Shown here one piece after another: positions 22,402-56,004 of a stretch of DNA of 64,000 nucleotides. The notes below the pieces were generated by a model. That model was not told where the DNA came from and made no database searches. It saw only the letters and a list, made by a program, of their open reading frames with translations. Position 1 is the first letter of the stretch; every line of letters starts with the position of its first letter. The stretch covers positions 70,866,001 through 70,930,000 of the forward strand of contig NC_134471.1 in the NCBI RefSeq assembly GCF_964194025.1, read 5' to 3'. A program made the translations under genes and the position numbers. This DNA is from Convolutriloba macropyga (Eukaryota).

Positions 22402-22831
22402 TGTGAGGGTCACACGTATGTAAAAAAAGGGTGTACTGAAAACCTTGGGTTTCAAGGTCAAAGATTTAGTTTAAATTTTAATTTATTACTTGATTAATGA
22501 CTGACACAATCTTGATAGGTGTCGACAGATTGAAATAGACAAAGCTCGGGCTTCGAGCAATACTAACAATTGTGACATATCAGTATTTACTTGGTTAATT
22601 TACCACAGTGATAGAACCGATATTGGGTACGAACAAAACTGAGGATAAAACTCATTCATTGAATAATAAACCTACCTTCACAGTCAATCACTCAATTAGA
22701 TCTTCATTTATTTGAAACCATTCTCTTCTGTTTTTATCTACTTATTAATTAAACTTCAATCCTTGTATTTTAAACAGGTACCACGCTCAATTACAAAAGA
22801 TTATACATATTGCGCACGGGCGGCTGCTATA
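22402..22831 (+). repeat. Gypsy 5' LTR
   Basis: TGTGAGGGTC...GGCTGCTATA, direct repeat of 39601-40030. Confidence 0.95.
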
Positions 22832-22832
22832 G

Positions 22833-22843
22833 TGGCGACAGAG
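22833..22843 (+). promoter_or_regulatory. Gypsy primer-binding site
   Basis: TGGCGACAGAG 1 nt after the 5' LTR; TGG complements tRNA CCA; resembles Ser(GCU)-type PBS TGGCGACGAG, but the tRNA is not confirmed. Confidence 0.7.
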
Positions 22844-23132
22844 ATTAAAAGTGGATCTTTTCCATTTGTGCCCCCCCAGTACGTTATGCGCCCCCCAGTC
22901 ACAGAGCACGAGCCATTACATAGTAAATTACTATGTAAAAATATTGCACGTGCGTCTGAGGGGTGCAAATAATATGCGCCCACTAAGCTGGGGGGGCACA
23001 AACGGAAAAGATCCTTAAAGGTAAATAGAAAACCACCACCCAATAATTTGAGCGTTGAACTAATTTCCAAGAGAAATCTATTTTTTTTGTTCGGAAACCA
23101 ATTTTTAAAATCGAGTTCGACGTCTTAACTTT

Positions 23133-23352
23133 TGTTGCGGTGCAACATTAATTGAATCACTTGCTTAGAAATGCTTTATTACAACGCTTTATGCTTAAAA
23201 ATCTCAAGCTCGAAAAGACCAAGTGAATGTGATAATATCGTTTGAAATTATGAATATTTGGTTTCAGCACGTGGTTAATTATCATTGTTTTCCTCATCTT
23301 GCTCGGATTGCATTGAAGGTCATTGTATCAAAGGCTATTGTAAATCGTAACA
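23133..23352 (-). repeat. BEL-1 3' LTR
   Basis: TGTTGCGGTG...ATCGTAACA; repeat of 30394-30613. Confidence 0.95.
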
Positions 23353-23563
23353 TACCGGCCTCCTTGAACTGGTTCAACTTTATTAATATATCATTGAAAC
23401 TGGCTTTCTGGCTAAGTGGTCAATTGCTGTAAATAGTTTTTCTCGGCAACCCATTACAAGTTTGTTGATACTTTCTTTAATTCAATCAGTTCTTGTTTGT
23501 CAGTTTTGTACAGTTGTAATTTACATTTCCTTGATGTCATTCCTCGTCTGCATCCTCTGTTGT

Positions 23564-26500
23564 TCATTCTTCATCTGTGTCATTTTCTTTGTCAGATCTT
23601 AATGACGGCATGTCAATATCCTCTTTCATTAACAAGACAAGCTTGTTGACTGGTCGTATAAATAGTCCAGATGATGTCTTCAGTTCAACAACTCGAACTA
23701 TTTTATCATTTCCGTCAAAGACCTTTGTTATTCGTCCCATTGGCCACAGAGTGGGTGGTGTGTTCTCTTCCTTGATTATTACTACATCATTGATGTCAAT
23801 ATTTGGTTGTCCCGTTTGCCATTTTTTCCGTGGTTGTAAATTTGACAAATATTCTGTTGACCACTTCTTCCAAAAGTCTCTGATAAGATTGTCCATCCTC
23901 TTCTTCTGTCGTGTCAATGAAATTGTTTTTTTTTCCTGTTGTTTTTGGTTCAGGCAATGCTGTGATTGGTCGTCCTATCAAAAATTGTCCTGGTGTAAGT
24001 GCTAAGGCATCATTGGGATCATTTGAAACGGACGTAATAGGCCTTGAATTTAAGATTGCTTCAATTTGTGTCAACAGTGTTGTGAAGTCTTCAAAAAACA
24101 ATTTTGTTCTTCCAATGCTGCGGTACATGTGGCGTTTCAAAGATTTGACAGCGGCCTCCCATAGTCCTCCAAAATTTGGTGTTCTCGGCGGTATAGTAAG
24201 CCAAGTAATATTGTTCTCCTTGCCGAACGTTGATATCAAATCTTCAAACTCGTGCGTAGCTAAGGCTTGTCGAAACTCCAACTCTCCCTTGGTCCCAATG
24301 AAAGTTGTTGAGTTGTCGCTGTATATTTCATCAGGAATACCTCGACGAGACACAAATCTTTTAATGGCTGCAAGACAGTCGTCCTTGGTCAGAGACATAA
24401 CTGGCTCTATGTGAACTGCCTTCGTACTGAAGCAAAAGAAAATTGCAACGTATGTTTTCAAAAGCGTTCGAGTTCCATTTTTCGTGTAGAACGGTCCACA
24501 ATAGTCGAGTCCGCAGTGACTGAACGCAAAGGATGGCACTACTCGCTCTCGAGGTAGATCTCCCATCTGAGGCTGTAACAATTTGGCATCAAAACGGATA
24601 CATGGCTTGCATCTGTATAAGACACCTTTCACTACAGAAAGCCCTCCAGGTATCCAAATATTTCGTCGAAGCGTGTATAACGTCAGTTGAGGTCCTCTGT
24701 GAAGACTTTTCTCGTGTGCTTCTCGAATAAGCATTTCAGTGATTGGAAATTTTCTTGGAATAAGAACTGAAAATTTTCGGTCTATTGTGTAGGGTGAATT
24801 GGCTAGGCGTCCTCCAACTCGAATCACCTTATTTTCTTCATCAAAAAATGGTGAAAGGCTGTTGAAACTGCTGCTTCTAGGAAATTTTCGTCTTCTGTGT
24901 CTCCCTTTAGTGGCTGCTGCATAGGCGTTAACGAAACATTTTATTTCTCTGGTGTCATCTTTGTTGTATTGATGTACTGTTTCGCTAGAATTGCCTGTAT
25001 TCCCGGTAGACACGATGTACAGTTGATCCCCAGGGCCCCCGGCCCAACCTATACCATGTCTGACATCCTCCCTTGAGACCCCGACAGCTTCTACGCTGTC
25101 AAGACATCCTGGGCCCCCGGCCCTCCCTATACCTAAGGAATTGGTAATAGAAACTGAGCTGGCATTTTCACCTGCGTCCCCGGCGCTGACAAGACTACCT
25201 GGGCCCCCGGCCCTACCTATACCTAAGGAATTGGTAGTAGAAACATCATCTGCGCCCCCGGCGCTGAAAAGATTACCAGGGCCCCCGGCCCTACCTGTAC
25301 CTAAGGAATTAGTAGAAACTGAGCTCGCATTTTCACCTGCGCCCCCGGCGCTGACAAGACTATCTGGGCCCCCGGCCCTACCTATACCTAGTGAACTAGT
25401 AGAAAAAGAGCTCGAACTTTCATCTGCGCTCCCAGCGCTGACAAGACTAAGACTACCTGGGCCCCCGGCCCTACCTATAACCTCAGGAGTACCGGCTGAA
25501 CTTGAGCTCCAATTTTCGTCCGCGCCCTTGGCACTGACAAGACATCCCGGGCCTCCGGTCCCACCTAAGTGTTGAGGACCACTGGTAACTAAAGAGATCC
25601 CCGTGCCCTTGCCAATCCTGGTGTTGATGTAAGCACCTGGGCCCCCGGCCCTACCAGTACCACCAACCCCCTCTGGTCCAGTGGATTTGATACGTTTCTG
25701 AACGTATTGTTTTGTCGCATCTCTGCTGCTGTTGTTTGCATCTTCAGTGGGCTGATTCATGATGATCTTGTATTCATGAAGAAAGTTTCGCTGTATGAAG
25801 CTGTACACTTGAAGTCGTCCTTCGTATAAATCTTTCCCTTGTAAAGAGACTGAATTATAAGTCCAGATCATTGGTTGAGACGTAGACTCATTACTATCAG
25901 TCCTTTCGTTTGGCGTTGAAGAGCATGCTTTTATGCTGTTCGACATTTTTGTTGTCCGTTGTTTCGCTTTTGAAGATTGAATTCTTCTCCTGATACTGCT
26001 GATGAACTTTTGGACATAGGTAAATATCCTTGTAACTTTATGTATTGACGAATGCCGATTTATCATCAAAACAATTGCGTTATCCTCTTTTGATGAAATC
26101 ATTGTCACGTTTTCAGATTGCACCTTTACTTCTTTTTTGGTCTCTTCTCCTGTAGGTGACAAAATGTCAAGTGAAGGCCAGGCGTTTTCAGGCTGCCGCA
26201 ACCACAATGGTCCATCCCACCAAAGCTTATGGTTCATCAAATCAGCTGCTGCTAATCCTCTGGAAGCACAATCCGCTGGATTATCTTCTGTTGGAACATA
26301 TTTCCAACTACTGGCTGGAATAATTTCTTGTATTTTCGCTACTCGGTTGGCGACAAATGAAATGTTTTCCTTTTCCTCGGATAATCTTGTAGCCAGGCAA
26401 TTGTAACTGTAGAATCTGACCACGCAAAAACCTTCGGAGTTGGAAACCGTTCATCGCTAATAGCATTTGTCACTGCCTCAACAAGCTTAGCTCCTAGCAG

Positions 26501-29500
26501 AGCAGCACAAAGTTCCAACCTTGGCACACAAACTGATTTGATTGGTGCAACTCTTGTCTTTGCTGTAAGCATTTTTGTTTCAATGAAATTGTCTGTCTCC
26601 TGTCTGATGAAAACGACAGAAGCATAAGCTGTAGTAGAAGCGTCGCAAAAGACGTGCAACTGCAAATCTGATTTCGTGGCTGGCTTGAGAATCTTCCGTT
26701 GAAGACTAATTTTTTCAAGATCCTTCAGTTGTGCTCGAAGTCGCAGGTACTGCTGTAGAATTGGGTCCGATAAAGGTTGATCCCAGCTAAGTTTGTCCAT
26801 CCACAACAGTTGAACAAAGGATTTATGTTGAATAGTCGTTGGTGATAGCCATCCCAGTGGGTCAAATAAACGTGAAACTTCTGAGAGGATTTGCCGTTTT
26901 GTAAATGGAGTTCCCTTGTCAAGTTTTACTGTGAAACCAAATTGATCAGGATTTAGATTCCACCTTATCCCAAGCGTCTTAATGGCATAGTCTTCGCTTT
27001 CAATTATCTTCTCGTCTTCCGTTTCTCTGAAAGTGGCAGCTAGTCTTGATACAAGTTTTGAGTCGCTAGATACCCATTTCCGTATATCAAAACCTGCTGA
27101 AGCAAGAAGCGTAATAATGGCGTCCTGAAGCTTCTCTGCGGCTTCTGAATCTTCGCATCCTGTAAGTAGGTCATCCACATACATATCAGTTGTTAGTGAC
27201 AAACGAAGTTTAGTGTTTGTTGTTTCTTCGGCAAGAACTTGTAGTGGTCGAATTGAATGAAAAGACGAAGACGCAATGCCGTATGTTACCCGAGTCATAC
27301 GATAAGTTTCAATCGCCTCTGAATTTGGATCTTTCCACAATAATCGGTGATAATCTTTGTCTTCCTTGTCCAATTCCACTTGCCTATACATTTTTGCAAT
27401 ATCAGCAGAAAGTGCTACTTGGTGTAGTCGAAATCGAACAAGAATGCTGAAAAGGTCTTTCTGAATTTTTGGTCCGACCATGAGTCTGTCGTTGAGAGAT
27501 ACTCCTGTTGTTGTCTTTGCGGATCCGTCAAAAACGACCCTCAGCTTGGTGGTACTGCTTGACTCCTTGAACACACAATGATGACAAAGATAGTAGCAGT
27601 TTTCGACAGGCTTGACAAGTTCTGATGTTGGAACTTTCTCCATGTGTCCGAGATGAAAAAACTCTCCAATGAATTCTGCGTATCTCTTATAAAGGTCGGG
27701 TTGTCTTTCCAATCTGAATAGAAGACTGCGGAGTCGTTTTTTGGCTTGTTGAAGTGAATCTCCCAATGCTTTTGTCTCTTTCTTGAAGGGAAGTTTCACT
27801 ATGAAGCGACCTTCAGGGCTTCTTCTAGTTGTTTCCTTGAAGTGATCATCGCAGCGTTTTTCTTCTGCTGTCCAAAGCTGCGCTGCTGGAACTTCTTCTA
27901 TTTCCCAAAAACGCTGCAAATTTTCTGGCTCTGAAGAAACAAAGAAAGTCTGCAGATCGTTTGTATAGGTTTTGTCTGTCTGTTCCCTTCCAATAACGAC
28001 CCAACCGAACATTGATAGCCTATATGTTATTCCACAGTTAGGCTCCTTTAGTCGATTGTTGCCAATCATTATATCTTCATAATGAGATGCTCCGATCAAG
28101 AGGTCAATTGATGACGGCTTGTTGAAATCTGGGTCAGCAAGCTCCAACTCCTTTACTGTTTCCCATTGGCTGGTGTCAAAGAACCGTGATGGCAGATTAT
28201 CAGTCATTTTTGTCAAAACTGACGCACTAATATTGACAGTGGACGATCTGTTCCTTGATGAGATAAGAAGGTCCACGCGACCTTTGTTGTCTTGAACCGT
28301 CCCACCTAGTCCAAAAACTTTTGTGTTGCTGCTTTTCTTCTTCAATTGTAACCTTTGTACTGCTGATTCAGTTATAAGGTTGTTTTGTGAAGCTGAGTCT
28401 AGAAGTGCCCTAAGTAGAATTGTCTCGCCGTGAACATTAACGGCAACAATTGCGGTTTGAAGAAAGACTTCTTCTGAAGTTCGTTGAGTCATAGCTCCTG
28501 TGAACTTGTTTTCATCCTTAGCTTTTGCAATTGCTGTTGTTGTTATAGCGTTGTTCTCCTGTTTGTCATTTGCTTGAGTGCTGGTTGTTCCGCTAGTTGT
28601 TTGCTGATTGGTGTTTTTGTTGTGAATGTTTTCACGATGAAGAAGAGTATGATGCTTTCTACCACATTGCTTGCATTTCGATCCATCACAATCTTCTGAT
28701 CTGTGTCCCGGTCGCAGACAATTGAAACAGAGTTTTCTAACCTTTATCAGCTCTGCACGTTCCCTCACTGAAAGTTTCTTGAACTTTCCGCATTTGAAAA
28801 TTTTGTGCGTTTCTTCACAACATTCGCATTGTTGCTCGGAAGTCGCCAAATGTGTGTGCAAATGTCGTTGGTTCCCGTTCATTTGAGTTTTTGTCGCTCC
28901 TACTCCATTTGGCGCTGTTGCCTCGAGTGCTTGTGCGCGTTCTTCTAAGAAAAGTCTGAGCTCTGCATACCTTTGAGGTTCCTTGCCTTTTGAAGACAGC
29001 TCCCATTGTTTTCTTGTCTCTGTAGGCAGCTTCTCACTGATCAAGTAAACAAAAAAGATGTCTTGACTATTGACTGGTTCTCCCAAATTCTGCAAGGCAA
29101 GTCGATGTTCGTCCATTGCTTCAATTAAATTTCTTAAGTCGCTGGCATTATCGGTTGTCAGTGATCGATACGAAACAATTGAATGCAGGTGTGTGCGAAT
29201 GATGATCCTCTTGTTCTCGTATCTGTTTATCAGAGTATTCATAGCAATGTCGAAATTGTGATCGGTAACTGGTATCGAGGCAAGCAGTTTGGCGGCATCA
29301 CCTTTTACAGATGCTTTCAGATACTGCAACTTCTGACTTCCTTGAAGAGAACTGTTGTCGATGACTGCTCCTTTGAAGAAATCAAAGAACGAAGTCCATT
29401 CCATATAATTACCCGAAAAAACTGGCAGATTGAGTTTTGGTAACTTGATGTTGGCTGAGCTCCTCATAGCATCGGAGAGCGTTGAAGTAGATGGTGTTGA

Positions 29501-29836
29501 AGTATCTGCTGCTGTTGAAGGTCCCTCAAAACGTTTCGTGAAGCGTTTGATTGCATCAATGTTCTGTGTCAACTTGTCATCAACTTCCTAGGACTCCAGA
29601 ATATCATTGTCCAGTGCTTCCGCCTCCGTCAAGTTCTGTTGAAGTTCTTGGTTCAAAGTTACCAGAAAATTCTGCTTTCGGGTGAGAAGTGTCGCTACCT
29701 GATTTAGCCTGTTGATGTCTGCTTCTGAAATGGTGTCTAGATCTTTTGACATGATATTTTCAGCCTCATTGTTAAACCTTGTAGCAACGCTGCGGTGTGA
29801 TCCCCCCGACTGTTTCTGCATTTCAAGATTGGACAT
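23564..29836 (-). pseudogene. BEL/Pao gag-pol polyprotein with one in-frame TAG (29588) and two frameshifts (~26365, ~23930)
   Basis: KLPKLNLPVFSG gag, triple CCHC (CFNCLRPGH..C), protease LLDSAS, RT YLCHHCV/VVFDGS/ADIAKMYRQV/YVDD, RNase H HVFCDAS..AKTRVAP..PRLEL, integrase GLDYCGP/SDN/GGLWEAAVKS, C-terminal WPMGRI..GNDKIVRVV. Confidence 0.93.
25025..25680 (-). repeat. In-frame Gly/Ser-rich tandem repeat inside BEL pol (8 GxAGGPG-type units)
   Basis: GGGCCCCCGGCCC-type cores at 25033, 25111, 25201, 25279, 25366, 25459, 25549 and 25639; all spacings are multiples of 3. Confidence 0.9.
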
Positions 29837-30393
29837 TTTGACTTGCTGTTGCCTCTGAGGGCGTTTTTTTTTCGTGTCTTTGATGCTGGTCTTTATTCGT
29901 ATTAGTTTCGTTTGTCTTTTTGTGGATTTTGCTGTGCTGAAAGCTAAAAACACACTAAAAGAACGCAAAAGATGGGAAATCGGGTTTCACTTAATCCCCC
30001 CTTCAAAAAATGCGGCCAATTTTTGCGCGCGAACTTAGTGCTATTACTTCGGGGGAGCAAACCTAAACTAAAAATTTCGAAATCTCCGCGAGAACTGAGA
30101 AAGAGATTGTTTTCCCCGAAGTTTCACAAAAAAGTTTTTGTAACCCTTGAGATATAGTTCTCCCACTAGATAACTTTACCGGGTCTCAGAATTAGGTTAA
30201 TCAACCTTGTTATACAAGTTAATCAACTTGTATAACATGAGGGGGGATGTGTTATCTAGTGGGGGGTCCGCTTTTAACTTCCCATTTAAGTTTCCCCTTT
30301 TAGATTTTTTGCTAAATTTTTTGAGAGAGTTAATGCTTTTGGTGCCTAATGCTTTGACTATTTTATCCTTAACCTATTTGTCGGCGGACCAAA

Positions 30394-30613
30394 TGTTGCG
30401 GTGCAACATTAATTGAATCACTTGCTTAGAAATGCTTTATTATAACGCTTTATGCTTAAGAATCTCAAGCTCGAAAAGACCAAGTGAATGTGATAATATC
30501 GTTTGAAATTATGAATATTTGGTTTCAGCACGTGGTTAATTATCATTGTTTTCCTCATCTTGCTCGGATTGCATTGAAGGTCATTGTATCAAAGGCTATT
30601 GTAAATCGTAACA
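30394..30613 (-). repeat. BEL-1 5' LTR
   Basis: Repeat of 23133-23352, adjacent to the PBS. Confidence 0.95.
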
Positions 30614-30686
30614 ACTTTACGACCCGGAAGACGAATTGTGGACTGCTGTCGGGATTCGACAACAACTGCCATCTTGGAACTTTCAA

Positions 30687-30692
30687 GTGAGT
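30687..30692 (+). promoter_or_regulatory. Candidate Gypsy major splice donor in the leader
   Basis: CAA|GTGAGT consensus donor, 273 nt upstream of the gag ATG. Confidence 0.55.
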
Positions 30693-30959
30693 ACTCCCTG
30701 AAAATTCGAATATCTTAAATCAGGGCGTACATGTTTTTGTGATAATAAAATAGCGTTCAGAAACATCAATATTTAAATTTGACTTAATTTGACTTAAACT
30801 CAAGCATTAAACTTCGAGTTTTTTTGCCTTTATTGTAGAGGGAATTAGAGTTTCAATCATATTTAAAAACTGTTAACTAGAGTGTCGGAAAAATAGTTCG
30901 CGTTTCGAACGGAATCAGTGAAATATTTTGAATAACAACAGCTTTTAAAGAAAATAAGG

Positions 30960-31981
30960 ATGGCGCGGCACTCCTCAAAAATGCTGTTACCGGAACCATT
31001 TACTGGATCAAATGATTTTGAAAGTTATATTACACACTTTGCGCTCTTGTCAAAAATTCAAACGTGGCAAAGAAAAGAAACAGTAAACGCCGAGACCGAA
31101 ATTGATGAACGGCCGCATTATTTTGCGTTAAGGTTACAAAAGTCGGCTATTGATTTCTATCGTACACTTTTGGAGGACACCAGAAAGAGTTATGACTAAA
31201 AGCTTTCAGACAACATTATAATGAGAAACCAGTATTGTTCCGGGGGAGGCTAGCTAGGAGAGTCCAGCAGCCTGGTGAAAAACTAACAGATTTTCTCGGT
31301 GATTTGCAAACTTTAGCCTTAAAAGCATACCCTCAGGAGTCTAATGAGATAAGAGAACATCTCATTTTGAGGGGATTCCTCGAAGGCATAGAAAATAGTC
31401 AGGTGCGACTCGACCTGTGAAAGAACTTGGGTGACGCGGAAATAACTTTAGACAAAGCTTTAGAAAGAGCACAACACATTGAAGCAGTCACGAGAATTGA
31501 GGAGGAGGATAATGAGCCACGGGTTTCTGCCATCCAGTCAAATGAAAACACACAACTGATTAATTCGATTAACGATTTAGTGCGGACACTGCAGACTAAT
31601 CAACCTAATATGCAAGAGAATCAAAAGTTTTCATCGCAAGGAGCGCGGCCAAAAGAGTTTCTGCGCGGTAGTGAGCGAAGTTCAAGAGAGAACAAAGATA
31701 GAAATAGAAGTACTAATAGCTATACCAGAAGCAGCGCTGAGCATAGACGAAATAATTACGAAAGTAGAGCGCGTTCGCTAACACCTGGAGGTGAGAACAG
31801 AAGCCGAGATCGATCGCCCGAAAGTCGTGCCGAGCAGTCGAAGGCAGCGGTGAGTTGCGAGAAAGAAAAATGTCGCCGTTGCGGTCAGCGAAACCATGCA
31901 TATAGGGAATGCAAAAACTGTTTCGAATGTGGGAGCCCAAATCACTTCAAACGAAATTGTCCGTACTTAAACGAAAATTAG
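30960..31981 (+). pseudogene. Gypsy gag (disrupted) with two CCHC zinc knuckles
   Basis: PEPFTGSNDFESYITHF, RVQQPGEKLTDF, FLEGIEN, CRRCGQRNHAYREC, CFECGSPNHFKRNC. Confidence 0.9.
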
Positions 31982-32015
31982 CTGGGCTTCCTTTTCAGCC
32001 GGCTACGTAAAAACT

Positions 32016-35000
32016 TTGCGTGGCGGAAACAGCCCAGTGGAGGCATTGTTTGCGAAAATAATGATAAAAGACAAATTGATAATGGCCTTAATTGATAGTG
32101 GAAGTAGTGTTAATATTATAAGCGACACACTCTACAAGCAATTGGGGGAACCGAGCCAGATCAGAATGTGCTATAAAAATATAATAGCTGCCGATAACGG
32201 GAAAATGCCTATAATGGGGTCAACAGATATTCAAGTTCAACTTCAGAAAGTTACATGTGAAATAACAGTTAAATTTCTAGTGACCAGAATTGAGATAACG
32301 CCTTGTCTTTTAGGCATGGAATTTTTGTACAATTTTGACTGTATTTTTAATCTCAGAAAGAACGAAATTTTTTGCGGGGCGATTGGGCAAACATTACAAC
32401 TGGCCCCATCCCAACGAAGTAATAAGAATCTGTTTTTAATTGCTGCTGAGGATCACGAATTACCTCGTCGCTGCGAGGGTTTCATTAAATGCAAAATTAT
32501 TGATGAAGAAGGTAACATAACACAGCAAACAAAAATTATAGTCGAACCCATGAAAGGGTTTGAAGAAAAATCACACTTACTAATAGCGAGATCGCTGAAT
32601 GACATGATTGATGATGTCGTATGGATTCGAGCTCTGAACCCTATATTAGAATCAAAGAAACTTTACAAAAATGCGAGAATCGCATGTGCGGAAAACATTG
32701 AAAAAATTTCAAGATTTCAACAAAATAACCCTGACAATAATAAAAGCATAGGGACGAATTTGATTTCGAGAAACACGTGAACTCAAGTTCAATGAGCTTG
32801 TCTTGTGAGGAAATGACAAAAGTGAGGTCACTTTGCCGAAAATATGAAGTGATATTTTCGCGAAACTCAAATGATATGGGATTTTGCGACCGAATTTATC
32901 ATAAAATAAAATTAAAAAAGGATGCTGTGCCATTCAGACGTACATACGGCAGCATGAGTTTTGAGAAAAAAAAAACTCATGAAGAAAATTGTGGAAGACT
33001 TGGAACGAGATGACTTAGTCGAACAAACACACTCTGATTGGGCAGCACCATCATTACTGGTACCAAAAAAAGACGGAACCTACCGCTTAGTTGTAGACTA
33101 CCGTGGTCTAAATAAACAAATAGAGAAAACATGCTGGCCTTTACCACGAATTAATGAGGTTATTGATTCACTGGAGGGAAACATGTACTTCTCAAACATT
33201 GATCTTCTGTCGGGATACTTTCAAATGGCGCTGGAAGAAGAGAGTCAAAATGCAACAGCTTTTATTACACCTTTGGGCCTATATAAGTGGAAGAGGCTCC
33301 CTATGGGACTAGCTTCTGCACCAGGAGCTTTTCAGAATCTATTGGAATTATTTTTTGCTGGTCTCTCTTACAAAGTAGCTTCAGTTTATCTAGACGACGT
33401 TATCGTTTTTGGAAGAAATTTCGAAGAACATCTTAAACGGTTAGAGCTGGTTTTGCAACGTTTATCGGAGAATGGATTAAAGATTAAAAGATCAAAATGC
33501 AATTTCTTCCAAAAGCGCGTCAGCTTTTTAGGACAAATTATATCTGAGAGTGGTGTCGAGGTCAACACAGAGAAAGTAAGAGCGGTAGAAAAAATGAAAG
33601 AACCATCATCCCTAAAAGACGTCAGGGCTTTTTTGGGCCTTGTGGGCTATTATCGAAAACTCAATCCGGGTTTCGGAAAAACATCAGAACCTCTTTACGG
33701 GTTACTAAATAAATCAAATAACTTTGAATGGAGTACAGAGTGCACAAGTGCGGTAGCAGAGTTGAAGGAAAAGCTTTTAGAAGCCCCAGGTTTAGGATAT
33801 CCAAACGATAGGGATCAATATACATTAACTACTGATGCATCGTTGACAGGCATCGGAGCAATTCTTACACAAAAACAAGGATCTGAGGATAGAGTAATTG
33901 CATATGCTAGCAAAACTTTTAGTAAAAGTCAACGAAACTACTCAGCAACTAAGCGGAAATTATTCGCAATAGTTCACTTTAACCATTATTTTTAAAACTA
34001 TTTACTTGGTCAGCATTTTTTAATTATAACGGACCACAGGGCTCTCATGTGGATCTATAGTTTTAAAGAACCAGACGGTATGGTCGCAAGATGGATAGAG
34101 AAACTTGGGCAATTCAATTTTGAAATCAAGCATAGAGCAGGAGAGAAAATCCCTTTCGCGCATAAACACAGAAGAAGAGGAACAAACAGCTTTCGTTAAC
34201 GCTATTTCGCTAGACGTAGAGCAAGACGATACCGACTATAGTAGTCTAGGTTGGCAGTTACACAAACTGCAGAGAGTAGAACTGCGAGATTCGCAGCAAA
34301 GTGACAATATACTCAAAGAAGTATATTCATTGGTCATAAACAAAAAAAGACCCGAACCACGGCAAATGAGAAACGGAGCTTCAAAGGAGTTATGGAAATA
34401 CTGGGTTCATTATAAAAATCGTTCTCTCATAGAAGGGATTTTGTATCAAAAACACCAAACAGAACCTAACTTTGAAACTGTTTACCAAATGCTGGTACCC
34501 TGGGGTAGAGTGTCGAACACGTTCTTGAGCTGTTGCATGATTCGCCTAGCGCAGGACACTTTGGTGTAGAGAAAACGTACAAACGAGCTTGCGAAAGGTT
34601 TTAATGGCCGTGCATGAGAAGGGACGTAAGAAACTGGATAGAAAGCTGTGACGTTTGCCTAAAAAGGAAAGACACTAAGCAGAAGCATCGGCATTCACTC
34701 ACAAAATGGAAACCTAGTCATCCATTTTGGCAAGTATCTCTTGATATCATGGGTCCACTTCCCAAAACTCAGGGAAACAAGTATATTTTGCTTATCAGTG
34801 ATAAATTCAGTAAGTGGTACGAAGCCGTAGCGTTACCAATCAAGAGGCAAAAATTGTAGCAAAAGCGTTTGTTGAACACTGGATATTAAGATTGGGCTGT
34901 CCAGTCAACCTTCATAGTGACCAAGGGTCAAACTTTATGACTAAATTGTCTCGTAGCCTTTGCAGTGAACTTGGAATTTAGAGAACATCAACCACATCCT

Positions 35001-35991
35001 ACCACACACAAGGGAACGCGATGATTGAACGAACAAATCGAACAATAGAAGAATGCTTCTCCAACACGAGTGGACTAATTTTCTACCTTTAGCGATGATG
35101 ACATATCGATCATCATTTCATAGTGTAACAAGATACAGCCCAGCGTTTGTGGTACTGGGTTTTCCACTGTCGCTACCTATAGACTGCATCTATAGCACAC
35201 CACAGACCACAATATATGCAACACCAGGTGACTATGTTTTCACGATGAAACAGAAACTACAAGAAACGCACCAGTTGATACGAGAGTATATGGATTTCAA
35301 ACAAGAACGCCAAAAATCGTATTATGATCGCAGTAAGTATGGGCCGAGCTATAAAGTTGGCGAAGAAGTGTTAATTTTCAACCCAACGGTTAGAAAAGGA
35401 GAAACAAGAAAATTTACTTCTTTCTATAGAGGACCATACATAATTGTTGAAAATATAAACGATTTGAATTTCAAGGTAGAAGATAAAAAGACGAGGAAAA
35501 CTATCAAGGTCCATTATGACCGACTGAAGAAATATAAAACACGAGAAAAACCATTCACGCCTGAGCCTCAGGCGAAACGAAAAACAACCAGTAAGGAGCA
35601 GAAGAATGGCGATTTGAACAGCCTAGACGATGGCGATATAATTGAAATAGAATCATCAACAGACAGTGAAAGCAATCTAAACACAGAAAATCAATCCGAA
35701 GCTGAGGATGCTAACGATTCACTAAATGTTACAACTGAAACGTCTGAGAATGAAGCTAAAGAATCAGAGCAAGAAACCTCTGAAGGGCAAGAGAAGGCAC
35801 AAAATGTTCCCGAGGGAAGAGGTGCAACTCCATCAAAAGCTACCGAGTACACTGAAAAAAAACCAGCAGAAACAAAAATTCCAAAACCAGAAAAAAAGCA
35901 ACAGGAATCTAGTAGTAAAACAAAAAATACTGAAGAAAAGATTAATAGTATTCCCAAGGCACCAAAAATGGCTACAAGGTCTAGCAGTTGA
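32016..35991 (+). pseudogene. Gypsy pol (disrupted): aspartic protease, dUTPase-like spacer, RT, RNase H, integrase, acidic tail
   Basis: ALIDSGS..LLGMEFL; LVPKKDGTYRLVVDYR, RLPMGL, YLDD; TTDAS..GIGAIL..IAYAS..YSAT; CDVC, VSLDIMGP, HSDQGSNF, GPY motif. Confidence 0.93.
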
Positions 35992-36064
35992 TTAAAATCG
36001 GTGCCTGAGAGATTATAAAATTACTTTACTGAGCAAGATGTGGAGTACTTTAGCTGCCAGGAAA

Positions 36065-36085
36065 CTGACGACGTTTTTGTTTCAG
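36065..36085 (+). promoter_or_regulatory. Candidate env splice acceptor
   Basis: CTGAC branch-like motif, then GTTTTTGTTTCAG|, 20 nt before the env ATG at 36105; same TTTCAG consensus as the host PIG-B acceptors. Confidence 0.6.
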
Positions 36086-36104
36086 GAAAATCCAGAAAGA
36101 AATA

Positions 36105-38100
36105 ATGGAATCGAAAAGAAAGACGAGTTCGTCTGGAGCATCGTGTGATTGAATATCACTATTTTTGTATCTGGCATTGCTAGCCATTTTTGCTTATCCT
36201 TCACTTTGTATTAAATTATACGGCTATGACTTTGACAATATCGTATCAAAAAATATATATTCTCTGGATCACAGTACAAACTGTGATAACAAAATTCGAG
36301 TATCGAAAACAATAGAAGGTAGTTTGATATATGCTGATGTTCAGCCCGAGATAAAATTAAGATTTTGCATGTATGGAGCGGCATATACTGTGTCTGCACT
36401 TAAAAAGAGCAATGTATATGACGATGTTGTCTTTATTACCAAGAACTCAAGACTCCTGAAATCCATATATCCATTCTACGAAGGAACCTGTAGGAGCATT
36501 TGGCAAAACAAAAACTTTGCTTTACCAGGTTTTGGAGATAAAAACCTTAAAGTCAACAATTCAGTGACGGAAAAGATTTTAGAACGATCAAGTGAAACTA
36601 CTTATGCCGAGGAGCACAGCCAGAGCTTCATCAAAAAAAACAATCGTGAAGGTGCTATGTATGCTGAGCCTGTAGAGTGGGTTTCACCTACAGGAGTAAG
36701 ACTTATTGGAAATGTGATGATCAATGCAAAACTTTACATCGGAACAATTTGGGGAAAGCTGATACGAAGAAACCTCTTAAGCTTTAAGGATCCCCTAGGT
36801 TTCTCGAAAACTGTTTTTTATCAAAACCACATATTTTGAAGACAATTTAGTAAACTATTTTTTTGAAAATCAAGGTTAGCAAACATGTCAAACGATCAAA
36901 CACTTTAATAAGGAGGACCCTGTAAAAATTTTTGGTAAAACCAAAACCACTTTTATCAGCGAAAAAAATTTACACAAAAACAAATATGAAGATTTTGGAT
37001 TAGAAATCTTAGAGGAAAAAGCAATTAATTTGTGTGGACAGCAGGTGAAAACAACCGGAGTTCCAGGTGTTTTTTACTCCGAGGAGAGTTCAGAACTGAA
37101 AACTGGTAATCTTAAAATAACCATGGAAATGTTTCTTTCAAGCGTTGTTGACACCTTAAATTTCGAACTTCTCAAGGAGAGAGAAATTTTTTTTATGAAA
37201 ATCAGAACGCTCCAATGCGAGATTCAACGACTAATAATTCAAACTATGATTGACGTATCAAAAAACATTGTTATTCCATCGGTAACGCTCTTTGAGAAAG
37301 GAACTCACGTCGAAAGAGCAGGATCTGTGTTATATGTTCATAAATGTGCAAAGATGGTAGCAACAATAACTAAACTTCATTTTTGCACAGAAGAAGTTCC
37401 TGTGTTAGTAGAGGGTCAGAATTTTTCTTCTATTAGATATATGGACCCTATTACAAAAATTTTGTATCATAATTATATAATCGCTGCATGCAACCCGCTG
37501 TACCCAAATGTTGTGAAATTAGAAGACGGCAGTTTTCAATATGCAGAAACGCTGAAGAAATTCAATCGTGAGATATATGAGTGGTCGATGAATAATAACT
37601 TAAACGTAAGTGATAAAAACCTGCATCGCAACCTCTTCTCCATATCAGACGTAAAACAGAGTCAAATTGCTCGAACAATTCGCCATAATAGTAAAGGAAT
37701 TATCAGTTGGGAAGCATCCCGAGATTCAGATGGAAAATACAGCCATGAAAATTTTTTTTCATTTGAACGCTCAGTTCCAAAAACAATTTGTTCTAACAAA
37801 TGAAATAACATTTTTTCATAACTTAGAACTGAAAGCTTATACGTTTGGTTAAAAGCTAAGGACATTGCTGTGTCAGTCTTAACAGTTTACCTCATATTCC
37901 AAATTGTGAAAAATTTTCCTAAAATGTTTATCTGTTTAGGATTAGTCATTAATGGAGCCTCCTGGCAACAACTGTTCCGGAATCTCGACCCTGTAACGGG
38001 AACACGTATGTATAATCAACGGCTCAAATTAATTAATGAGCGTCAAGAACAAAAGAAAAAGATTGAAGAGAAAGAGTCCTTGAAAGAGTCGGTTGTTTAA
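36105..38100 (+). pseudogene. Envelope-like glycoprotein (chuvirus-G-like), disrupted
   Basis: Signal-peptide-like FLYLALLAIFAYPSLC followed by LYGYD(F); N-glycosylation sequons; Cys pattern QCEIQR...AGSVLYVHKC...CTEEVPV...YMDPITKIL...CNPLYP; C-terminal hydrophobic segment and short charged tail. Confidence 0.75.
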
Positions 38101-38109
38101 AAAAAGAAA

Positions 38110-38522
38110 AACGAAATTGAGTTGTCTTGAGTTCAAGACCAAAAAAAATGAAAATGAGTTGTCTTGAGTTCAAGACCAAAAATAATGAAAATGACTTGTC
38201 TTGAGTTCAGAGCCAAAAAAAATGAATGAAAATGACTTGTCTTGAGTTCGGGACAAAAAAAAAATGAAAATGACTTGTCTTGAGTTCAGGACCAAAAAAG
38301 AAATTAAAATGAGTTGTCTTGAGTTCAAGACAAAAAAAAATGAAAATGAGTTGTCTTGAGTTCAAGACCAAAAAAAAAATCAAAATGACTTGTCTTGAGT
38401 TCAGGACCAAAAAAAAGTGAATGAAAATGACTTGTCTTGAGTTCAAGACCAAATAAAATGAAAATGAGTTGTCTTGAGGTCAAGACCAATAAAAATAATG
38501 GAAAAGTCTTGAGATCAAGACT
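38110..38522 (+). repeat. Array of 11 palindromic units GTCTTG-AGNT-CAAGAC with A-rich linkers (35-42 bp period)
   Basis: Cores start at 38124, 38161, 38198, 38239, 38277, 38316, 38353, 38392, 38434, 38471 and 38506. Confidence 0.95.
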
Positions 38523-38551
38523 AAAAATATTGAGAAACTTTAGAAGCAAAA

Positions 38552-39471
38552 ATGGTCTCTATTAAACATAGCAGGCAGTGAGACCCCACAAATTGGTGAA
38601 TATGTGTACTATATGCCAGAGTTGTGGAAAGTTATTTCGGAGATTTCCCCGGGAGTGTACCGAGTGGAATCTTGTCTGTCACGGACTCGGAAAGTGTCTA
38701 CACTAGAACCTCTGGCACCCGCCAATATTCGGTCCCGAGCTCTGCAGACTGAAGTGGAACTGCAAAACCAGTACGCGCAGTTAGAGAAATTGAAGAGTAC
38801 AAATTCTTTACTCCAAAAGGATCTTGTCGAGCTTCGACAAAAACTAGACAAACATTGCGACAAAGCCAAAGAGGCAACAAGAGAAGCATTGAGAAAACTG
38901 AGCGCCGAGTGTGAGGCGCTAAGAGATAACCTAAAGGCGGCGGCAGCTAGAAATGCCGAACAAGAGCAGTCAATCAACTTACTTAAGCAGGAGTTGGCCG
39001 ATCTAAAAGTCAATACTGATAAAAAAGAGCGAAGCCATGGAGAAAATGGAGAAAGAGAATGACCAATTGAGGTCAGAGCTTCAGCAGTTGGAAAACTATA
39101 ACCAGTACTTGGCGAGTGAGTGCCGAAGAAAAGACACTATAATTGATAGACAAAAGCATTCTTTGAAGAACGAGAAAGCCAAAACGAAGGCCACAGATAA
39201 GTGTTTATTCGAGATTCGGAATAAAAAGGTATTGAATCGGCCTGCGACATTGTACGAGATTTTGTTGGTAAAAAGTTCTGCTTCAAAAGATCAGATCAAA
39301 AAACACTACCACAAAATGAGTTTGTTGACGCACCCTGATGCTGGTGGAGATGAGGAGTTTTTCAAGAACATCAATCGAGCATAACAAATACTGATGAACG
39401 ATGGGGCGCGAGAAGTGTACAACAATTTCCGGCTGGACGAGGTAGAGAAAGTCATGAATGACGAAAACTGA
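38552..39471 (+). pseudogene. Extra Gypsy ORF: SH3-like N-terminus, long coiled coil, C-terminal DnaJ J-domain (frameshift ~39025, TAA at 39382)
   Basis: LYEILLVKSSASKDQIKKHYHKMSLLTHPDAGGDEEFFKNINRA*QILMNDGAREVYNNF is a canonical J-domain with HPD; heptad-rich stretch ELQNQYAQLEKLK...LKQELADLK...LRSELQQLE. Confidence 0.85.
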
Positions 39472-39587
39472 TAACTAAACTTTTTATATGAAAAGTACAA
39501 GATTTTTGTATTTTAAAACGTTCTTGTATCAAGAGCTGTAAATTTTGTTTGATTTTATGTGAGTGAGTGGCACACTCTATTCTTATT

Positions 39588-39600
39588 GAGAGGGGGGCAG
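39588..39600 (+). promoter_or_regulatory. Gypsy polypurine tract
   Basis: GAGAGGGGGGCAG immediately before the 3' LTR. Confidence 0.85.
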
Positions 39601-40030
39601 TGTGAGGGTCACACGTATGTAAAAAAAGGGTGTACTAAAAACTTTGGGTTTCAAGGTCAAAGATTTAGTTTAAATTTTAATTTATTACTTGATTAATGAC
39701 TGACACAATCTTGATAGGTGTCGACAGATTGAAATAGACAAAGCTCGGGCTTCGAGCAATACTAACAATTGTGACATATCAGTATTTACTTGGCTAATTT
39801 ACCACAGTGATAGAACCGATATTGGGTACGGACAAAACTGAGGATAAAACTCATTCATTGAATAATAAACCTACCTTCAGAGTCAATCACTCAATTAGAT
39901 CTTCATTTATTTGAAACCATTTTCTTCTGTTCTTATCTACTTATTAATTAAACTTCAATCCTTGTATTTTAAACAAGTATCACGCTCAATTACAAAAGAT
40001 AATACATATTGCGCACGGGCGGCTGCTATA
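39601..40030 (+). repeat. Gypsy 3' LTR
   Basis: Direct repeat of 22402-22831, preceded by the PPT. Confidence 0.95.
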
Positions 40031-44797: not shown

Positions 44798-47300
44798 TGT
44801 GTAAGTTTCTTGGGCCTGAGAAATGATAACTCAATGTTTGAAAAAGTATCATAAATTGATGTAGACCACTCCCAAAAATGCACAATTTGATTGGATTATA
44901 AACAATTTATGCTGCTTTTAAACTACATAATTTTTCACAAACAAACTTGAGCAACTTTCATAAGATGCGTGTGTTGAATTTATTTATTAATTTTATGTAA
45001 CATTCATCACTGGGGTATATAATAAGCTGATGGTAATAAACTCGGTTGTATTTTTCAATAATTGTACCAATTACTCAGTTAGTTATGCAAGATTTACATT
45101 TTGTTCCTTTTATTAACCGACTCGGCTGAATAGGCCTCAGTTTTCAGTTGTTATGTTACTTGTTTGTTGAAAATATTCGTGTTTCTTTGTAGTTTGGTAT
45201 GCATGAGTTATACTGTGTCTGTAGTTTGGTTTTGCATTACTAAATAATTAGAATTAGGAATTTGACATTTTTTACATCTATGACCAGGCAAAGAACAAAA
45301 AGCGCAGAAGTCATACTTGATAGAACCAGTCTTCGTACGGGAAAGCAATTCCCTATTTTAATGCACATGTACTTCTTCAAAAATTGCCCAAAAATGATCT
45401 ATAGGTATGTATTAACCGACTCGGCTGAATATGCCTCGGTTTTCAGTTGTTATGTTACTTGTTTGTTGAAAATATGTGTAAGTTTGTTGGGCCTGAGAAA
45501 TGATAACTGAATGTTTGGAAAAGTATCAAAAATTGATGCAGACCACTCCCAAAAATGCACAATTTGATTGGATTATAAACAATTTATGCTGCTTTTAAAC
45601 TACATAATTTTTCACAAACAAACTTGAGCAACTTTCATAAGATGCGTGTGTTGAATTTATTTATTAATTTTATGTAACATTCATCACTGGGGTATATAAT
45701 AAGCTGATGGTAATAAACTCGGTTGTATTTTTCAATAATTGTACCAATTACTCAGTTAGTTATGCAAGATTTACATTTTGTTCCTTTTATTAACCGACTC
45801 GGCTGAATAGGCCTCAGTTTTCAGTTGTTATGTTACTTGTTTGTTGAAAATATTCGTGTTTCTTTGTAGTTTGGTATGCATGAGTTATACTGTGTCTGTA
45901 GTTTGGTTTTGCATTACTAAATAATTAGAATTAGGAATTTGACATTTTTTACATCTATGACCAGGCAAAGAACAAAAAGCGCAGAAGTCATACTTGATAG
46001 AACCAGTCTTCGTACGGGAAAGCAATTTCCTATTTTAATGCACATGTACTTCTTCAAAAATTGCCCAAAAATGATCTATAGGTATGTATTAACCGACTCG
46101 GCTGAATATGCCTCGGTTTTCAGTTGTTATGTTACTTGTTTGTTGAAAATATGTGTAAGTTTGTTGGGCCTGAGAAATGATAACTGAATGTTTGGAAAAG
46201 TATCAAAAATTGATGCAGACCACTCCCAAAAATGCACAATTTGATTGGATTATAAACAATTTATGCTGCTTTTAAACTACATAATTTTTCACAAACAAAC
46301 TTGAGCAACGTTCATTAGATGCGTGTGTTGAATTTAATTAGTAATTTTTTGTAACATTCATCACTGGGGTATATAAAAAGGTGATGGTTAATAAACTCGA
46401 TTGTATTTTTTAGTAATTGTACCAATTACTCAGTTAGTTATGCAAGATTTACATTTTATTCCTTTTATTAACCGACTCGGCTGAATATGCCTCGGTTTTC
46501 AGTTGTTGTGTTATTTGTTTGTTGAAAATATTCCGCTGACTTTGTAGTTTGGTATGCATGAATTATACTGTGTCTGTAGTTTGGTTTTGCATTACTAAAT
46601 AATTAGAATTAGGAATTTGACATTTATTACATCTATGACCAGGCAAAGAAAAAAAAGCGCAGAAGTCATACTTGATAGAACCAGTCTTAGTACGGGAAAG
46701 CAATTTCCTATTTTAATGCACATGTACTTCTTAAAAAATTGCGCAAAAATAATCTATAGGTATTTATTAACCGACTCGGCTGAATATGCCTCGGTTTTCA
46801 GTTGTTATGATACTTATTTGTTGAAAATATTCGTGTGACTTCGTAGATTGGTATGCAAGAATTATACTGTGTCTGTAGTTTGGTTTTGCATTACTTAATA
46901 ATTAGAATTAGGAATTTGACATTTTTTATATCTATGACCAGGCAAAGCAAAAAAAAGCGCAGAAGTCTTACTTGATAGAACCAGTCATAATACGGGAAAG
47001 CAATTTCCTATTTTCCCGGGCCGAGGATTTTGCCCAAAAATAACGGGGAAATGTGTGTAAAGAGTGTAAAAATAATATTTTTACACCGTTAGTGCCCCCC
47101 TTATTAAGGGTGGAATTGCATATTAAAGTGTAATATTAGTGGTGTAATTTTAATATTTAACGGTGGAAAAAGAGNNNNNNNNNNNNNNNNNNNNNNNGGA
47201 CACCTCGGCCCGGGTTAATACATATGTACAAAAAAATGCGCAAAATTAATCTATAGGTATTTTTAATACATTGCGGCCGTTATGCCTAGTCTTAACAGTT
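44798..47300. repeat. Tandem array, 677-bp unit x3 plus partial, with an internal sub-repeat containing a hairpin
   Basis: Near-identical units (ORF track repeats at 45262, 45939, 46617); motif TAACCGACTCGGCTGAATA.GCCTC.GTTTTCAGTTGTT occurs twice per unit. Confidence 0.95.
47015..47214. mobile_element. TIR element (CCCGGGCCGAGG...CCTCGGCCCGGG) inserted in the tandem array; spans a gap
   Basis: 12-bp perfect TIRs; array sequence resumes after GGG|TTAA; N gap at 47175-47197 makes the true length unknown. Confidence 0.7.
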
Positions 47301-48137: not shown

Positions 48138-48838
48138 GAGAACACTTCACTAAAAACAAAGCAATTAATTTTCTACAACTATTTTCGAAGTTGCTTTATT
48201 GTACTTTCTTTGAAAAGTGAAGCATCAAGTAGAATTAATAAAAATATCCAACCGGGAGTCAAGGAATGTGAAGTTGGTTATATATGTCAGGTTTCACAAA
48301 TTAAGTAGTTATAAGCATAACCGTATGAACCGATAAAGCAAAATTAAAATAATTAGTGACACAAAAAAATTTGACCATAACTCGTTTTTGCCATTCCCTT
48401 TGTTCACGGTTTTCAAAAATTTAGGCACAAAGAAGTTCTCAAAATGAAGAAGTTCCCTCAAGCATTCCTTTCCTAAGAAAACTCAAGTTTTTGCTCAATA
48501 ACACCATGTTTTGCAGAAGATTGCCAAGGCACAAAATTTGATGCTAAGATAAACCTTTGTTATTTTTTATTGTTAATACTTGTCGCATTGACCGCCTTAA
48601 GTATACTCAGAAAATCATTTTGCTTATTTGAATTAATAAAGGACGATACAAGCGTTTAAGATAAATAAATCAGTTCTCAGTTTTTCTAGTTTTGTGTGTT
48701 GAATTTCGACTGTTTTTCTTTGATTCCTTTTGTTTGTCACTTCTTCTCTTAACCTTTGAAAGTCTGTTTCGAGCGAAGATCCATAATAGTGCATAGATGT
48801 TCTCAAATGAATTGGGCATCAATGATTTATTGATGACA
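48138..48838 (-). repeat. BEL-2 3' LTR (about 110-bp internal deletion; outer end uncertain)
   Basis: High similarity to 56005-56805; lacks the block at ~56420-56520. Confidence 0.8.
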
Positions 48839-49349
48839 TAGCCGGCCCAATTTGAAAGAATGCAAAGAATAGTATACTAAGTCCATAAAATTAAAGACGA
48901 TTCTTGGTTGAAAAAAACAATCTTGGTAACGCATTAACAAAGAAATTAATTTCGAGATAAAAGAATAACTGACGTTATGCAAGAATATCAACCTTGATAA
49001 ATTTACGGATTTCAATGAAATTTTTTTGCAAAAATAAAACGAAGTACGGGAGAATAACGGTTAAAAAAGCGTAATAAACCGATAAACGCGAAAAAAACGG
49101 TAAAAATTTCCGCAAAACTACGGGTCCGCAGAAACTTAATGAGGAGGTCAAAATTTAGCTATCCGAACGAACGTTCTGAGGGGAGCAACAGGTTGCTACG
49201 GTGTAGCAATTTTTCTACCCGCAGAAAAGGCAGATTTTGAGTACAAACTGTCATGGAAAAATTGTTCTTTTCCTGAAAGAACTTACAAAGAGGCGAACCT
49301 TGTGAATTAGTGTTCGAATCAATGATAAAAATCAGTCAACTAGAACTTT

Positions 49350-52300
49350 GCTTAATTTAACAACAGGGCGAACTTTTTCACTAAACGCTGTCTTTAGTTT
49401 AACGGATCTCACAATTTGGTCCGAACCTGGGTATACTTCTATGACTTTGGCCAGTGGCCAAAGACCTCGAGGCGTGAAATCCTCCAAAACTCAAACAAGA
49501 TTGTCTCGTCTCTCTTCAAATTGGGACAACCTTTAGTCCATTTGCAAACTTTCTGCTGGTTTGGGAGATATTCTATGAGAAATTTGTTCCAGAAATGTTT
49601 GGCCAACTGTTGTGAAGTTCTCCAAGACTTTGAGATTGTAATCTTTTTCTCGGAGAAAACACCAGGTGGAAAATTGACAGTGAGTCTGCTCAACAGAAAA
49701 CGATTTTGTGTTAGGGGAAGTGGATCATTAATGTTACTCGAAGTGTTTGTGAGGGGACGAGAGTTCACGTCAAATTCTTTTTCGCAAGTGAAGGTAGACA
49801 AAGTTTCATTTGTTAGGGTTCTTGATCCATTGACCTTGTACAAAGACATTTTGAACAGTTGAATTAACCTTTCCCAACTACCATCAAAATGTTGTGCAAG
49901 AGGAGGACTAAACTTCCATTCAGTTTCAATATCAAGAATATGGAGTTTTGAGGCAAAATCCTTTGATGCTCTTAGTGATTCGATACCTTTCTTTAGTTCC
50001 GAACAAGAGCTGTGAAAAGATTTACCGTTTGCGGAAAAAATTTTCTGGGCTTTCCGCGGCGACTAATGAATCTGCGGATGCAATTCATTGTTGAGTCTGT
50101 AGACAGTTTTTCTGCTATCTCCAATTGGACTTCTCTTACCACCAAGCATTCGAACAGAAGTACGTAGCGTGTAGCGTCTCTGCCATATTGAGATACGGGG
50201 AAAGAACCTATGAAGTCAAGTCCTGTCGTCGCAAGACAAAGTGGTGCTCACTTGGTAACCGCTCGCATGGTAGATCAAGCATTTGAGGTTGCTGGATTTC
50301 TTGTATCATTCGTCGACAAGGAATGCATTGGCGGACTGTCTGCCTAACGACAGCTCGGCATTTCAAGACCCAATGGTATTGAATAAGGATGCACCGCGTT
50401 TGTTCAACTCCTGACTGAGCGTTAATTAGGTAAAAATTCTCGATTAGAAGCTTCACAACAGGGTTTAGACCATCCAGAAAGATTGGGTGTCGGGAAATTT
50501 CCAAATCCATTGCCTTGGACAACCGGACTTTGGCGCGGAGCTGATTATTGTTTTCAACATACGGACAAGGTCTTTCAGACAACTTGATTCTGAAAAGTCC
50601 TTGCCTTTACGTAGAGCAGATATTTTGTTTGCAATATTTTCAATCTGCGATACCTGGATAAGGTACCTGTACGCAAAAGTATGATGACAGAGAGCCAAAT
50701 GTTTGCTTCGCTTCTTGCAAAAGTCGCCGAAAAAGAAACAGTGCGCAGTCACTCTTATCAACCGATTCCAGTTGCTAAAAAGTGCAATATTTATTAGACA
50801 CCCTTGAGTTGACCGTTTAGGGGCTTCCGGTGGCTGTATTGAAAATACAAGTGGATGATGCTTCAAGAGATCTTGACAAGGCCATTCTTTCTCTTCGGAG
50901 CGCAGAAATGATGGTCCACTCAACCAACAAGAATTTGCATTCATCTGTCGAACCTCATAGCCTCTTGAGCCGTCATCAGCTGGATTATCAGATGAAGCGA
51001 TGTAGCGCCAATTGAGAGATGAGAGACGTCGAGAATCCTTGCCTATCTATCGCCAACGAAAATTCGATGACGCACTTCGGGATTTCTCAACCAATTAAGT
51101 ACAGTTATACTATCGGACCAGAAAAAGTAATTTCCGGTCTCCAAGTCTTGCTGTTTTTTGATAAATAGAGCAAATTGCGCGCCATACACTGCCGCTTGCA
51201 ACACCAGGTTTGGAATAGTCATCCTCTTGATCGGAGCTACTCTGGCTTTGCCCATCATGAAGACTACATCCACAGTTTTATCAACGTACTCAGTTTTTAG
51301 ATAAGACACTGCTGATAGAGCATAATCTGAAGCGTCTGTGAACATGTGAAGAGCTGTTGACTGAATTTTCGTGTTTCTACGGAAGAGAGCACGTGGAATG
51401 CTGATATTCTGGTAAGATGGAAGATCGCTTTTGAATTGAATAAATTCTAGGAACTGCTGAACGTCCAGTGGTGGGTCCCATTGTGGACCTTGATTCCAAA
51501 CCACTTGCAATATTTTCCTCACCCTGATTGTTAAAGGGGCTGTAACGCCAAGGGGATGAAAAGTTGAAGCAATGAACTTCAAAATTTCCTCATTGCTGTG
51601 CATTTATCCATGAGGAACTTTTTGAAAAGTCCTTTCTCAATGATGTATTCGTCAGTGCTTGCGTTCCACGTAAGACCCAAAACTTTTTGATGTTGAGGTG
51701 ATGGCACATCGGGCTTCAAAATATTATCAGTTGCGACATTTCTCAAGAACTCGTCGGAATTGAAATTCCACTTTGTGAGGTTGAAACCACCAAATGAAAG
51801 ACACTCTGTGGTTCTTTTCATAACGTTTACAGCATTTTCAATGTGTGCTGTCGAGATATATAGGTCGTCCTTGTAGATATTACGCTCAATGAAGTGTAAC
51901 ACTTGGGGAAATTTGTCCTGATTGTCACTGCTGAACGAAGAAGAGCGTCTGCTATGCATGTGGAAGATTTTCCGCCGAAAATTTGTCGTGTGTATTCATA
52001 CTCTTCAATTTTGCCACTGTAGTTCCATAGGAACCGAAAAAAGGCAGGATCAGAGAGAGCAACTTTAATTTGCATGAACGTTTGCTCAATATCTGCTAAA
52101 ATTGCCACTTGTTGCTCGCGGAATCTTTAGCGGACTCCCACAAGATTACTCAACAAACCGGGTCCCTTCAAAAAGTTTTAATTCAAGGATTGACCTTGAA
52201 AATCACTGGATGCATTTGTGACTCTTCTGACTTTTCCGGGTGTGTTATCATTTGAAACGGGATGTTGAAAAAGATAAGAACATGCTGGTTCTATGTCTGT

Positions 52301-55038: not shown

Positions 55039-55119
55039 TGAACTTCACAGCTCCAACAAAGACAACTTCTTTCTTCGAAGCGCTTTGAACCTTTGTCAGC
55101 AAGTCTGTTAGAAACTGCA

Positions 55120-55640: not shown

Positions 55641-56004
55641 TTACATACTATTTGGAGAATAATGTCGTTATTTTTCCGGACAAAAAACAAAGAGAACGTT
55701 GTTGAAAAACGTGTTTCGTACGCTCGTGTTTAACTATCGTTTCGTAAAATTGGGAACGCAGATTAAAGCGCTCGATCTGAATTACGGGAAAACGCAAGAA
55801 GGTAATATTGTTGAAACATCGAAATTTTTTCAGTATTTTGTGGTCATATCAAGAAAAAATTCTTAGGTCGCAAGAAAGGGGTGAATAGTCAAAAGGGCGA
55901 AAAAAAATAACAAGGAAAGATAAATTGTAATAACTAAAAAAAAGTCCAGTTAAATATGAAGCTCGTCTTGTGATGGAATGGGTGTTCTCCCGGATGTTGG
56001 ATGG

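Follow-up and report, generated by a model that had tools for sequence, protein, structure and literature searches.

The 64,000-nucleotide stretch of contig NC_134471.1 analysed here (the window) carries, at 36105..38100 of its + strand, an env gene predicted to encode a class III glycoprotein of the herpes simplex virus (HSV) gB/Monjiviricetes type, which is part of a Ty3/gypsy long terminal repeat (LTR) element spanning 22402-40030. The structural hallmarks of a Ty3/gypsy LTR element are present, each on the + strand: paired LTRs that are 97.7% identical (5' LTR, 22402..22831, 430 nt; 3' LTR, 39601..40030) and end in TG...TA, not TG...CA; a target site duplication (TSD), with AAAT directly before the 5' LTR and directly after the 3' LTR; a primer-binding site (22833..22843) that can pair with the 3' end of a host tRNA-Ser(GCT); and a polypurine tract (39588..39600). 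On the same strand lie gag (30960..31981), with CCHC zinc knuckles, and pol (31906..36105), which runs protease, reverse transcriptase (RT), RNase H and integrase in the Ty3/gypsy order. Behind env, a 37-nt tandem repeat of 10.2 copies (38107..38496, +) is followed by a fourth open reading frame (ORF4; 38544..39471, +) for a protein with a small beta domain, then a long coiled coil and, at its C-terminus, a J domain (39250..39423, +) with its HPD motif at 39331-39339. The pol stop and env start overlap in TAATG, and a pyrimidine-rich CAG that may be a weak splice acceptor (36071..36085, +) lies 19 nt before the env ATG, such acceptor-like sites having a background rate of 12 per 10 kb. In the window copy gag, env and ORF4 are broken, and pol is broken at many places.

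A preliminary description of the locus read env as a chuvirus-like class III glycoprotein serving as the envelope gene of a Gypsy element, and the Pfam score, the pol order and the structural matches agree with this. The env motifs that it named were all recovered between 36216 and 37908 (LYGYDF, 36216-36233; QCEIQR, 37213-37230; VERAGSVLYVHKC, 37309-37347; CTEEVPV, 37384-37404; YMDPITKIL, 37438-37464; CNPLYP, 37489-37506; and a hydrophobic segment, 37861-37908), split over two main frames with several stops between them. The window copy meets an early stop within its signal region, changes frame near 36810-36860, leaves the frame for a short distance near 37750-37830 and carries additional stops. 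The open piece at 36880-37800 scores 41.5 bits (E value 5.9e-11) against Pfam PF24664 (Monjiviricetes_fusion; curated cut-off 27), open env copies score 33.9-41.6, and no PF24664 match was found in any of 14 control genomes. A search of the 1.18-Gb genome for env returned 130 matches from 129 scored places (of 2289 candidates), at five of which the whole 677-codon frame is open. Counted from the ATG, the open copies encode 666 amino acids; the N-terminus of the protein is hydrophobic, and there are 11 cysteines and five N-glycosylation motifs. A furin-type RxK/RR site is absent from env in all four families checked.

The predicted monomer of an open natural env copy matches herpes gB and GP64 in the PDB; against viral models, xinmovirus glycoprotein (G) is best, followed closely by the chu-like, qin-like and rhabdo-like ones. 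These alignments, with low TM-scores, inform on fold class only. The env resembles G of Jingchuvirales/Mononegavirales (PF24664), herpesvirus gB and baculovirus GP64 in its class III fold, central long helix and C-terminal cysteine/proline pattern, and differs from them in sequence (7-15% identity in the structure alignments). The best structural match is class III, and neither baculovirus F nor a host protein took that place. By sequence and modelled fold, env is assigned to the class III, herpes-gB/chuvirus-type glycoproteins as part of a Gypsy element. An F-type (baculovirus/paramyxovirus, class I) envelope was ruled out by the class III match and the absence of the furin site. The relation to class III proteins that the preliminary description drew therefore stands, but chuviruses are not singled out as the donor because xinmo-, chu-, qin- and rhabdo-like G rank mixed.

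Some observations qualify this reading. Chuvirus glycoproteins carry GYDC near the N-terminus, and the window-family env has GYDF without this cysteine; the other env clade of the genome shows it as HYDC/HFDC. The C-terminal segment of the window-family env falls below the hydropathy threshold used, so that of the signal peptide and membrane segment proposed earlier, the hydrophobic N-terminus (seen in open copies) and the segment at 37861-37908 were found, but the latter does not qualify as a membrane segment by hydropathy. In three of three sister families the corresponding segment passes the threshold, and that of the window family aligns with theirs; a gB-like ectodomain lies between signal peptide and membrane segment, the membrane segment being weak in the window family. 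The window copy itself is broken, and no copy with gag, pol and env all intact was found among those fetched. Ten other copies, a small part of the family, were fetched. Eight have LTR pairs in direct orientation (96.3-99.8% identical), and in five of these eight the TSD is a clean 4 bp; in none of the ten are the four frames open together. Sister families hold long open frames. Pairwise ratios of nonsynonymous to synonymous change (dN/dS) among window-family copies are about 1. The window family has spread recently, and the copies read are now decaying. With gag, pol and env inside one multi-copy LTR element, the family shows part of what defines HSV/gB-type errantiviruses operationally (PMC13524379).

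Elements of this type are not confined to the setting that the preliminary description had in mind, namely env captures mainly in insect BEL/Pao elements. Chary & Hayashi (eLife 2026; PMC13524379) described Gypsy elements with gB/Chuviridae-like env across invertebrates, in many phyla, and read them as ancient. The window element resembles their HSV/gB-type 'ancient errantiviruses' in its Ty3/gypsy pol, gag-pol-env order, multiple copies, LTRs and tRNA primer site, and in an env with signal peptide, class III ectodomain, membrane segment and no conserved furin site; it differs in the J-domain fourth ORF behind env and in a probable host phylum outside their survey. It is like Anakin, the mosquito BEL/Pao elements reported to carry a chuvirus glycoprotein (Dezordi et al. 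2020; PMC7642597), in its broad glycoprotein type, and differs in being a Gypsy element in a non-arthropod host.

Further env families were found in the same genome by the PF24664 search and follow-ups. Gypsy pol was read beside env in seven families, which fall into two deep RT clades; for an eighth env, the fetched stretches showed no pol. Trees of RT-RNase H (9 rows) and env (13 rows, of which three are less than half filled), built from sequences of this genome only, divide the families alike, setting the window clade (the window family, fam1, with fam2, fam3 and fam4; RT support 97/100) apart from the second clade, and fam3 pairs with fam4 in both. The two RT clades are 29-32% alike, and their env clades 19-25% alike in local segments. 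Inside the window clade, env diversity (27-62%) follows RT (e.g., fam3 and fam4, 72.9% alike in RT and 61.7% in env), with one exception: likeness between fam1 and fam2 is 76.8% for RT but 30.4% for env, which rapid change or an exchange of the 3' block could explain.

These data bear on how env was acquired. The preliminary description had supposed an independent capture, and such an event, in which a Gypsy clade took its glycoprotein, within its own lineage and possibly twice in this host, from a chuvirus or from a negative-strand RNA virus related to chuviruses, would accord with the nearest modelled proteins being xinmo- and chu-like virus G rather than herpes gB, with the low likeness of the two env clades on their two RT clades, and with the published uptake of chuvirus G by mosquito BEL/Pao elements (PMC10084718). 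It is nevertheless improbable, as env diversity within the clade is deep and tracks RT, the env type occurs across many phyla with an ancient origin argued for it (PMC13524379), and no one viral family is prominent in the structure ranking. PMC10084718 also reports most insect chuvirus glycoproteins as adjoining fragmentary Gypsy copies without clear capture, and a fossil RNA-virus gene could similarly have merely landed beside Gypsy fragments in this genome, as in many arthropod chuvirus fossils; this is scarcely credible because the position of env inside paired LTRs is conserved, the gene keeping its fixed place between pol and the 3' LTR in the fetched copies, with TSDs, and six further families having env with Gypsy pol upstream or alongside. 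The preferred reading is that env has long belonged to the Gypsy lineage and was not recently caught from a chuvirus.

Several additional observations were made on the env families. At least 30 near-identical open env copies of fam3 occur in the genome (G000), with LTR pairs 99.8-100% identical, a sign of very recent spread, and P0005 (77%) suggests a family related to fam3 in another sample. Pol and env of the '898' family are separated by ~3.8 kb without a long ORF (L043:3980-7800). An ORF of 220 codons (L045:6900-7559), with a PAN domain (E value 1.7e-4) and a hydrophobic N-terminus, lies directly upstream of a gB-type env, with no pol in the stretches fetched upstream of it. Long ORF pieces that, by eye only, resemble an env-type gene behind a pol end were seen on contig C315 (L059:612-4073).

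ORF4 lies within the LTRs, between env and the 3' LTR, and is open over ~308 codons in other copies. A genome search with it gave 130 matches from 128 scored of 2588 candidates. In its model (predicted local distance difference test score, pLDDT, of 80), a domain of three strands is followed by a helix of 166 residues and then by a J domain, which matches DnaJ at an E value of 1.9e-16 and superposes on the J fold at a root mean square deviation of 1.7 over 69 residues. The J fold and intact HPD motif together mark ORF4 as a J-domain protein. The HPD motif is present in all 12 fam1 copies read, 11 of which have env directly upstream. A DnaJ search identified a second multi-copy family with the same plan, fam2 (ORF4 at L093:6596-7444), so that env and ORF4 are retained in a second, distant family (fam1-fam2 identity: gag 54%, pol 57%, env 30%, ORF4 27%). 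A fragment of a host J protein may have been acquired once and carried as a passenger without function, since dN/dS of fam1 ORF4 is near 1 and its start codon is uncertain (an in-frame ATG in one of 11 readable copies); this is very unlikely, however, given that the families, although their silent sites are saturated, share an open frame, the order of the domains and HPD, that the two element J domains are mutual best matches, neither being as near to any of the 13 host J domains used for comparison, and that fam2 ORF4 keeps HPD in the four copies aligned and has dN/dS of 0.23-0.62, below 1 in 10 of 10 pairs (non-independent, from five copies chosen for open frames).

Other env-bearing families (fam3, fam4 and families of the second clade) carry different ORFs behind env, without a Pfam family above the cut-off. 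Such extra ORFs, of 284-611 codons, were seen at L108:2804-3793, L112:2519-3739, L044:2754-3605, L050:2617-4449 and L046:5466-6425, and extra 3' genes seem to be the rule in env-bearing Gypsy families of this host. Different ORFs at the same place are what would be expected of accessory genes in conflict, which bears on the main rival to a role of ORF4 in particle assembly or uncoating, namely that it is an anti-silencing factor whose beta domain would attach to chromatin, to RNA or to a silencing protein while the J domain brings Hsp70 against repression. The N-terminal 58 residues are the best kept part of ORF4 between families (41-45% versus 27% overall), and a J-domain protein works with Hsp70 in plant transposon silencing (SILENZIO; PMC8616336). 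ORF4 nonetheless matched no chromatin-reader family in the family search, and its N-terminal domain is modelled at a pLDDT of only 58-71 without a fold match of its own; anti-silencing is a tentative and rather unlikely reading.

For the element as a whole, we consider it probable that the window holds the broken env of a multi-copy, four-gene Ty3/gypsy element whose working copies would bud as enveloped particles and fuse cells, and whose ORF4 would recruit Hsp70. Going by its family, reverse transcription would be primed by tRNA-Ser and integration would produce a 4-bp duplication. The pol frame may be read via a frameshift from gag, because the two frames overlap, and env may be made from a spliced or re-initiated RNA, because of the TAATG overlap and the acceptor-like site. 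The Env protein would enter the secretory path, trimerise in the membrane and fuse the particle with a target cell, and could thereby bring the element into other cells, in the way that gypsy of Drosophila moves from soma to germline (PMC13524379). The ORF4 product is predicted to dimerise via its coiled coil and to tether Hsp70 by the HPD motif, directing it to proteins of the element; by analogy to viral J domains, this would most likely serve the assembly or uncoating of particles.

Viral J domains, such as that of polyomavirus T antigen, use host Hsp70. ORF4 shares with them an HPD J domain for host Hsp70 (a T antigen structure is row 47 of the fold matches), although polyomaviruses are unrelated and the J domain of ORF4 is C-terminal on a long coiled coil. 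Accessory genes other than env at the 3' end are also known from bdelloid rotifer LTR elements, whose additional ORF3 encodes a GDSL lipase or a DEDDy exonuclease (PMC5408684); those ORFs stand in the ORF3 place, whereas the J protein here is added to env. No J or DnaJ domain in LTR elements was found in the literature, a provisional result from mostly non-subscription papers without Repbase or Dfam; 'DnaJ' and 'J-domain' are absent from the main text of PMC13524379, its supplements not having been searched for these terms. Xenacoelomorpha are absent from the genome list of that paper, with 0 text matches in the paper and seven supplements, and no paper on acoel genome assemblies was found that reports gypsy LTR elements with an envelope, a provisional absence in mostly non-subscription literature. 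The likely host phylum, and a J-domain fourth gene kept in two families, appear new here.

The host is very probably an acoel, judging by mitochondrial gene order at one locus. A mitochondrial-type stretch (cox1, nad3, trnP, nad4L) joined to simple repeat and retroelement DNA (L058:1-2433, G000:C315) reads in code 5; one strand carries nad4L-trnP-nad3, and cox1 lies on the opposite strand in head-to-head orientation. The stretch is a nuclear copy or a chimeric contig. This order is given for an acoel, unlike any other metazoan, in Table 1 of PMC2973942, from which the present stretch differs in having trnA rather than trnT between nad3 and cox1. Elsewhere, four tRNA-Ser(GCT) genes and one tRNA called Arg cluster within 2 kb (L119).

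The 5' leader of the window element also contains a nested BEL/Pao element (23133..30613, - strand), separate from the Gypsy element and younger than it, with 220-nt LTRs 99.1% identical, a 5-bp TSD (ACTTT) and the Pfam domains DUF1759, Peptidase_A17 and DUF5641. Its RT aligns only marginally with that of the window element, and no env-like ORF was seen within 23133..30613. An 87-nt tandem repeat (25094-25488) lies in frame between its RNase H and integrase regions. Another BEL/Pao-like element, a degenerate one, occupies 48138-56805 (- strand; LTR-like repeats ~95% alike), and tandem arrays occur at 44798-47014 (677-nt) and 57437-57805 (21-nt).

As for env, it adds a case to the type published in 2026, likely filling a phylum absent from that survey. 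The genome offers a direct test of 'ancient inheritance' versus 'repeated capture', because it contains at least seven families from two deep clades, and the LTRs of some are nearly identical. More surprising is the J-domain gene. Our judgement is evenly divided on the broader proposal of an old acoel errantivirus lineage with a four-gene plan like that of complex retroviruses and its own Hsp70 co-chaperone, representing the first J-domain gene in an LTR retroelement and adding Xenacoelomorpha to the hosts. If ORF4 works, enveloped retrotransposons, like complex viruses, would keep accessory genes that steer host chaperones, and Hsp70 would be a host pathway on which such elements depend or which they fight. 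Xenacoelomorpha, a key branch near the base of the bilaterians, would, if this is true, join the hosts of gB-type enveloped Gypsy elements.
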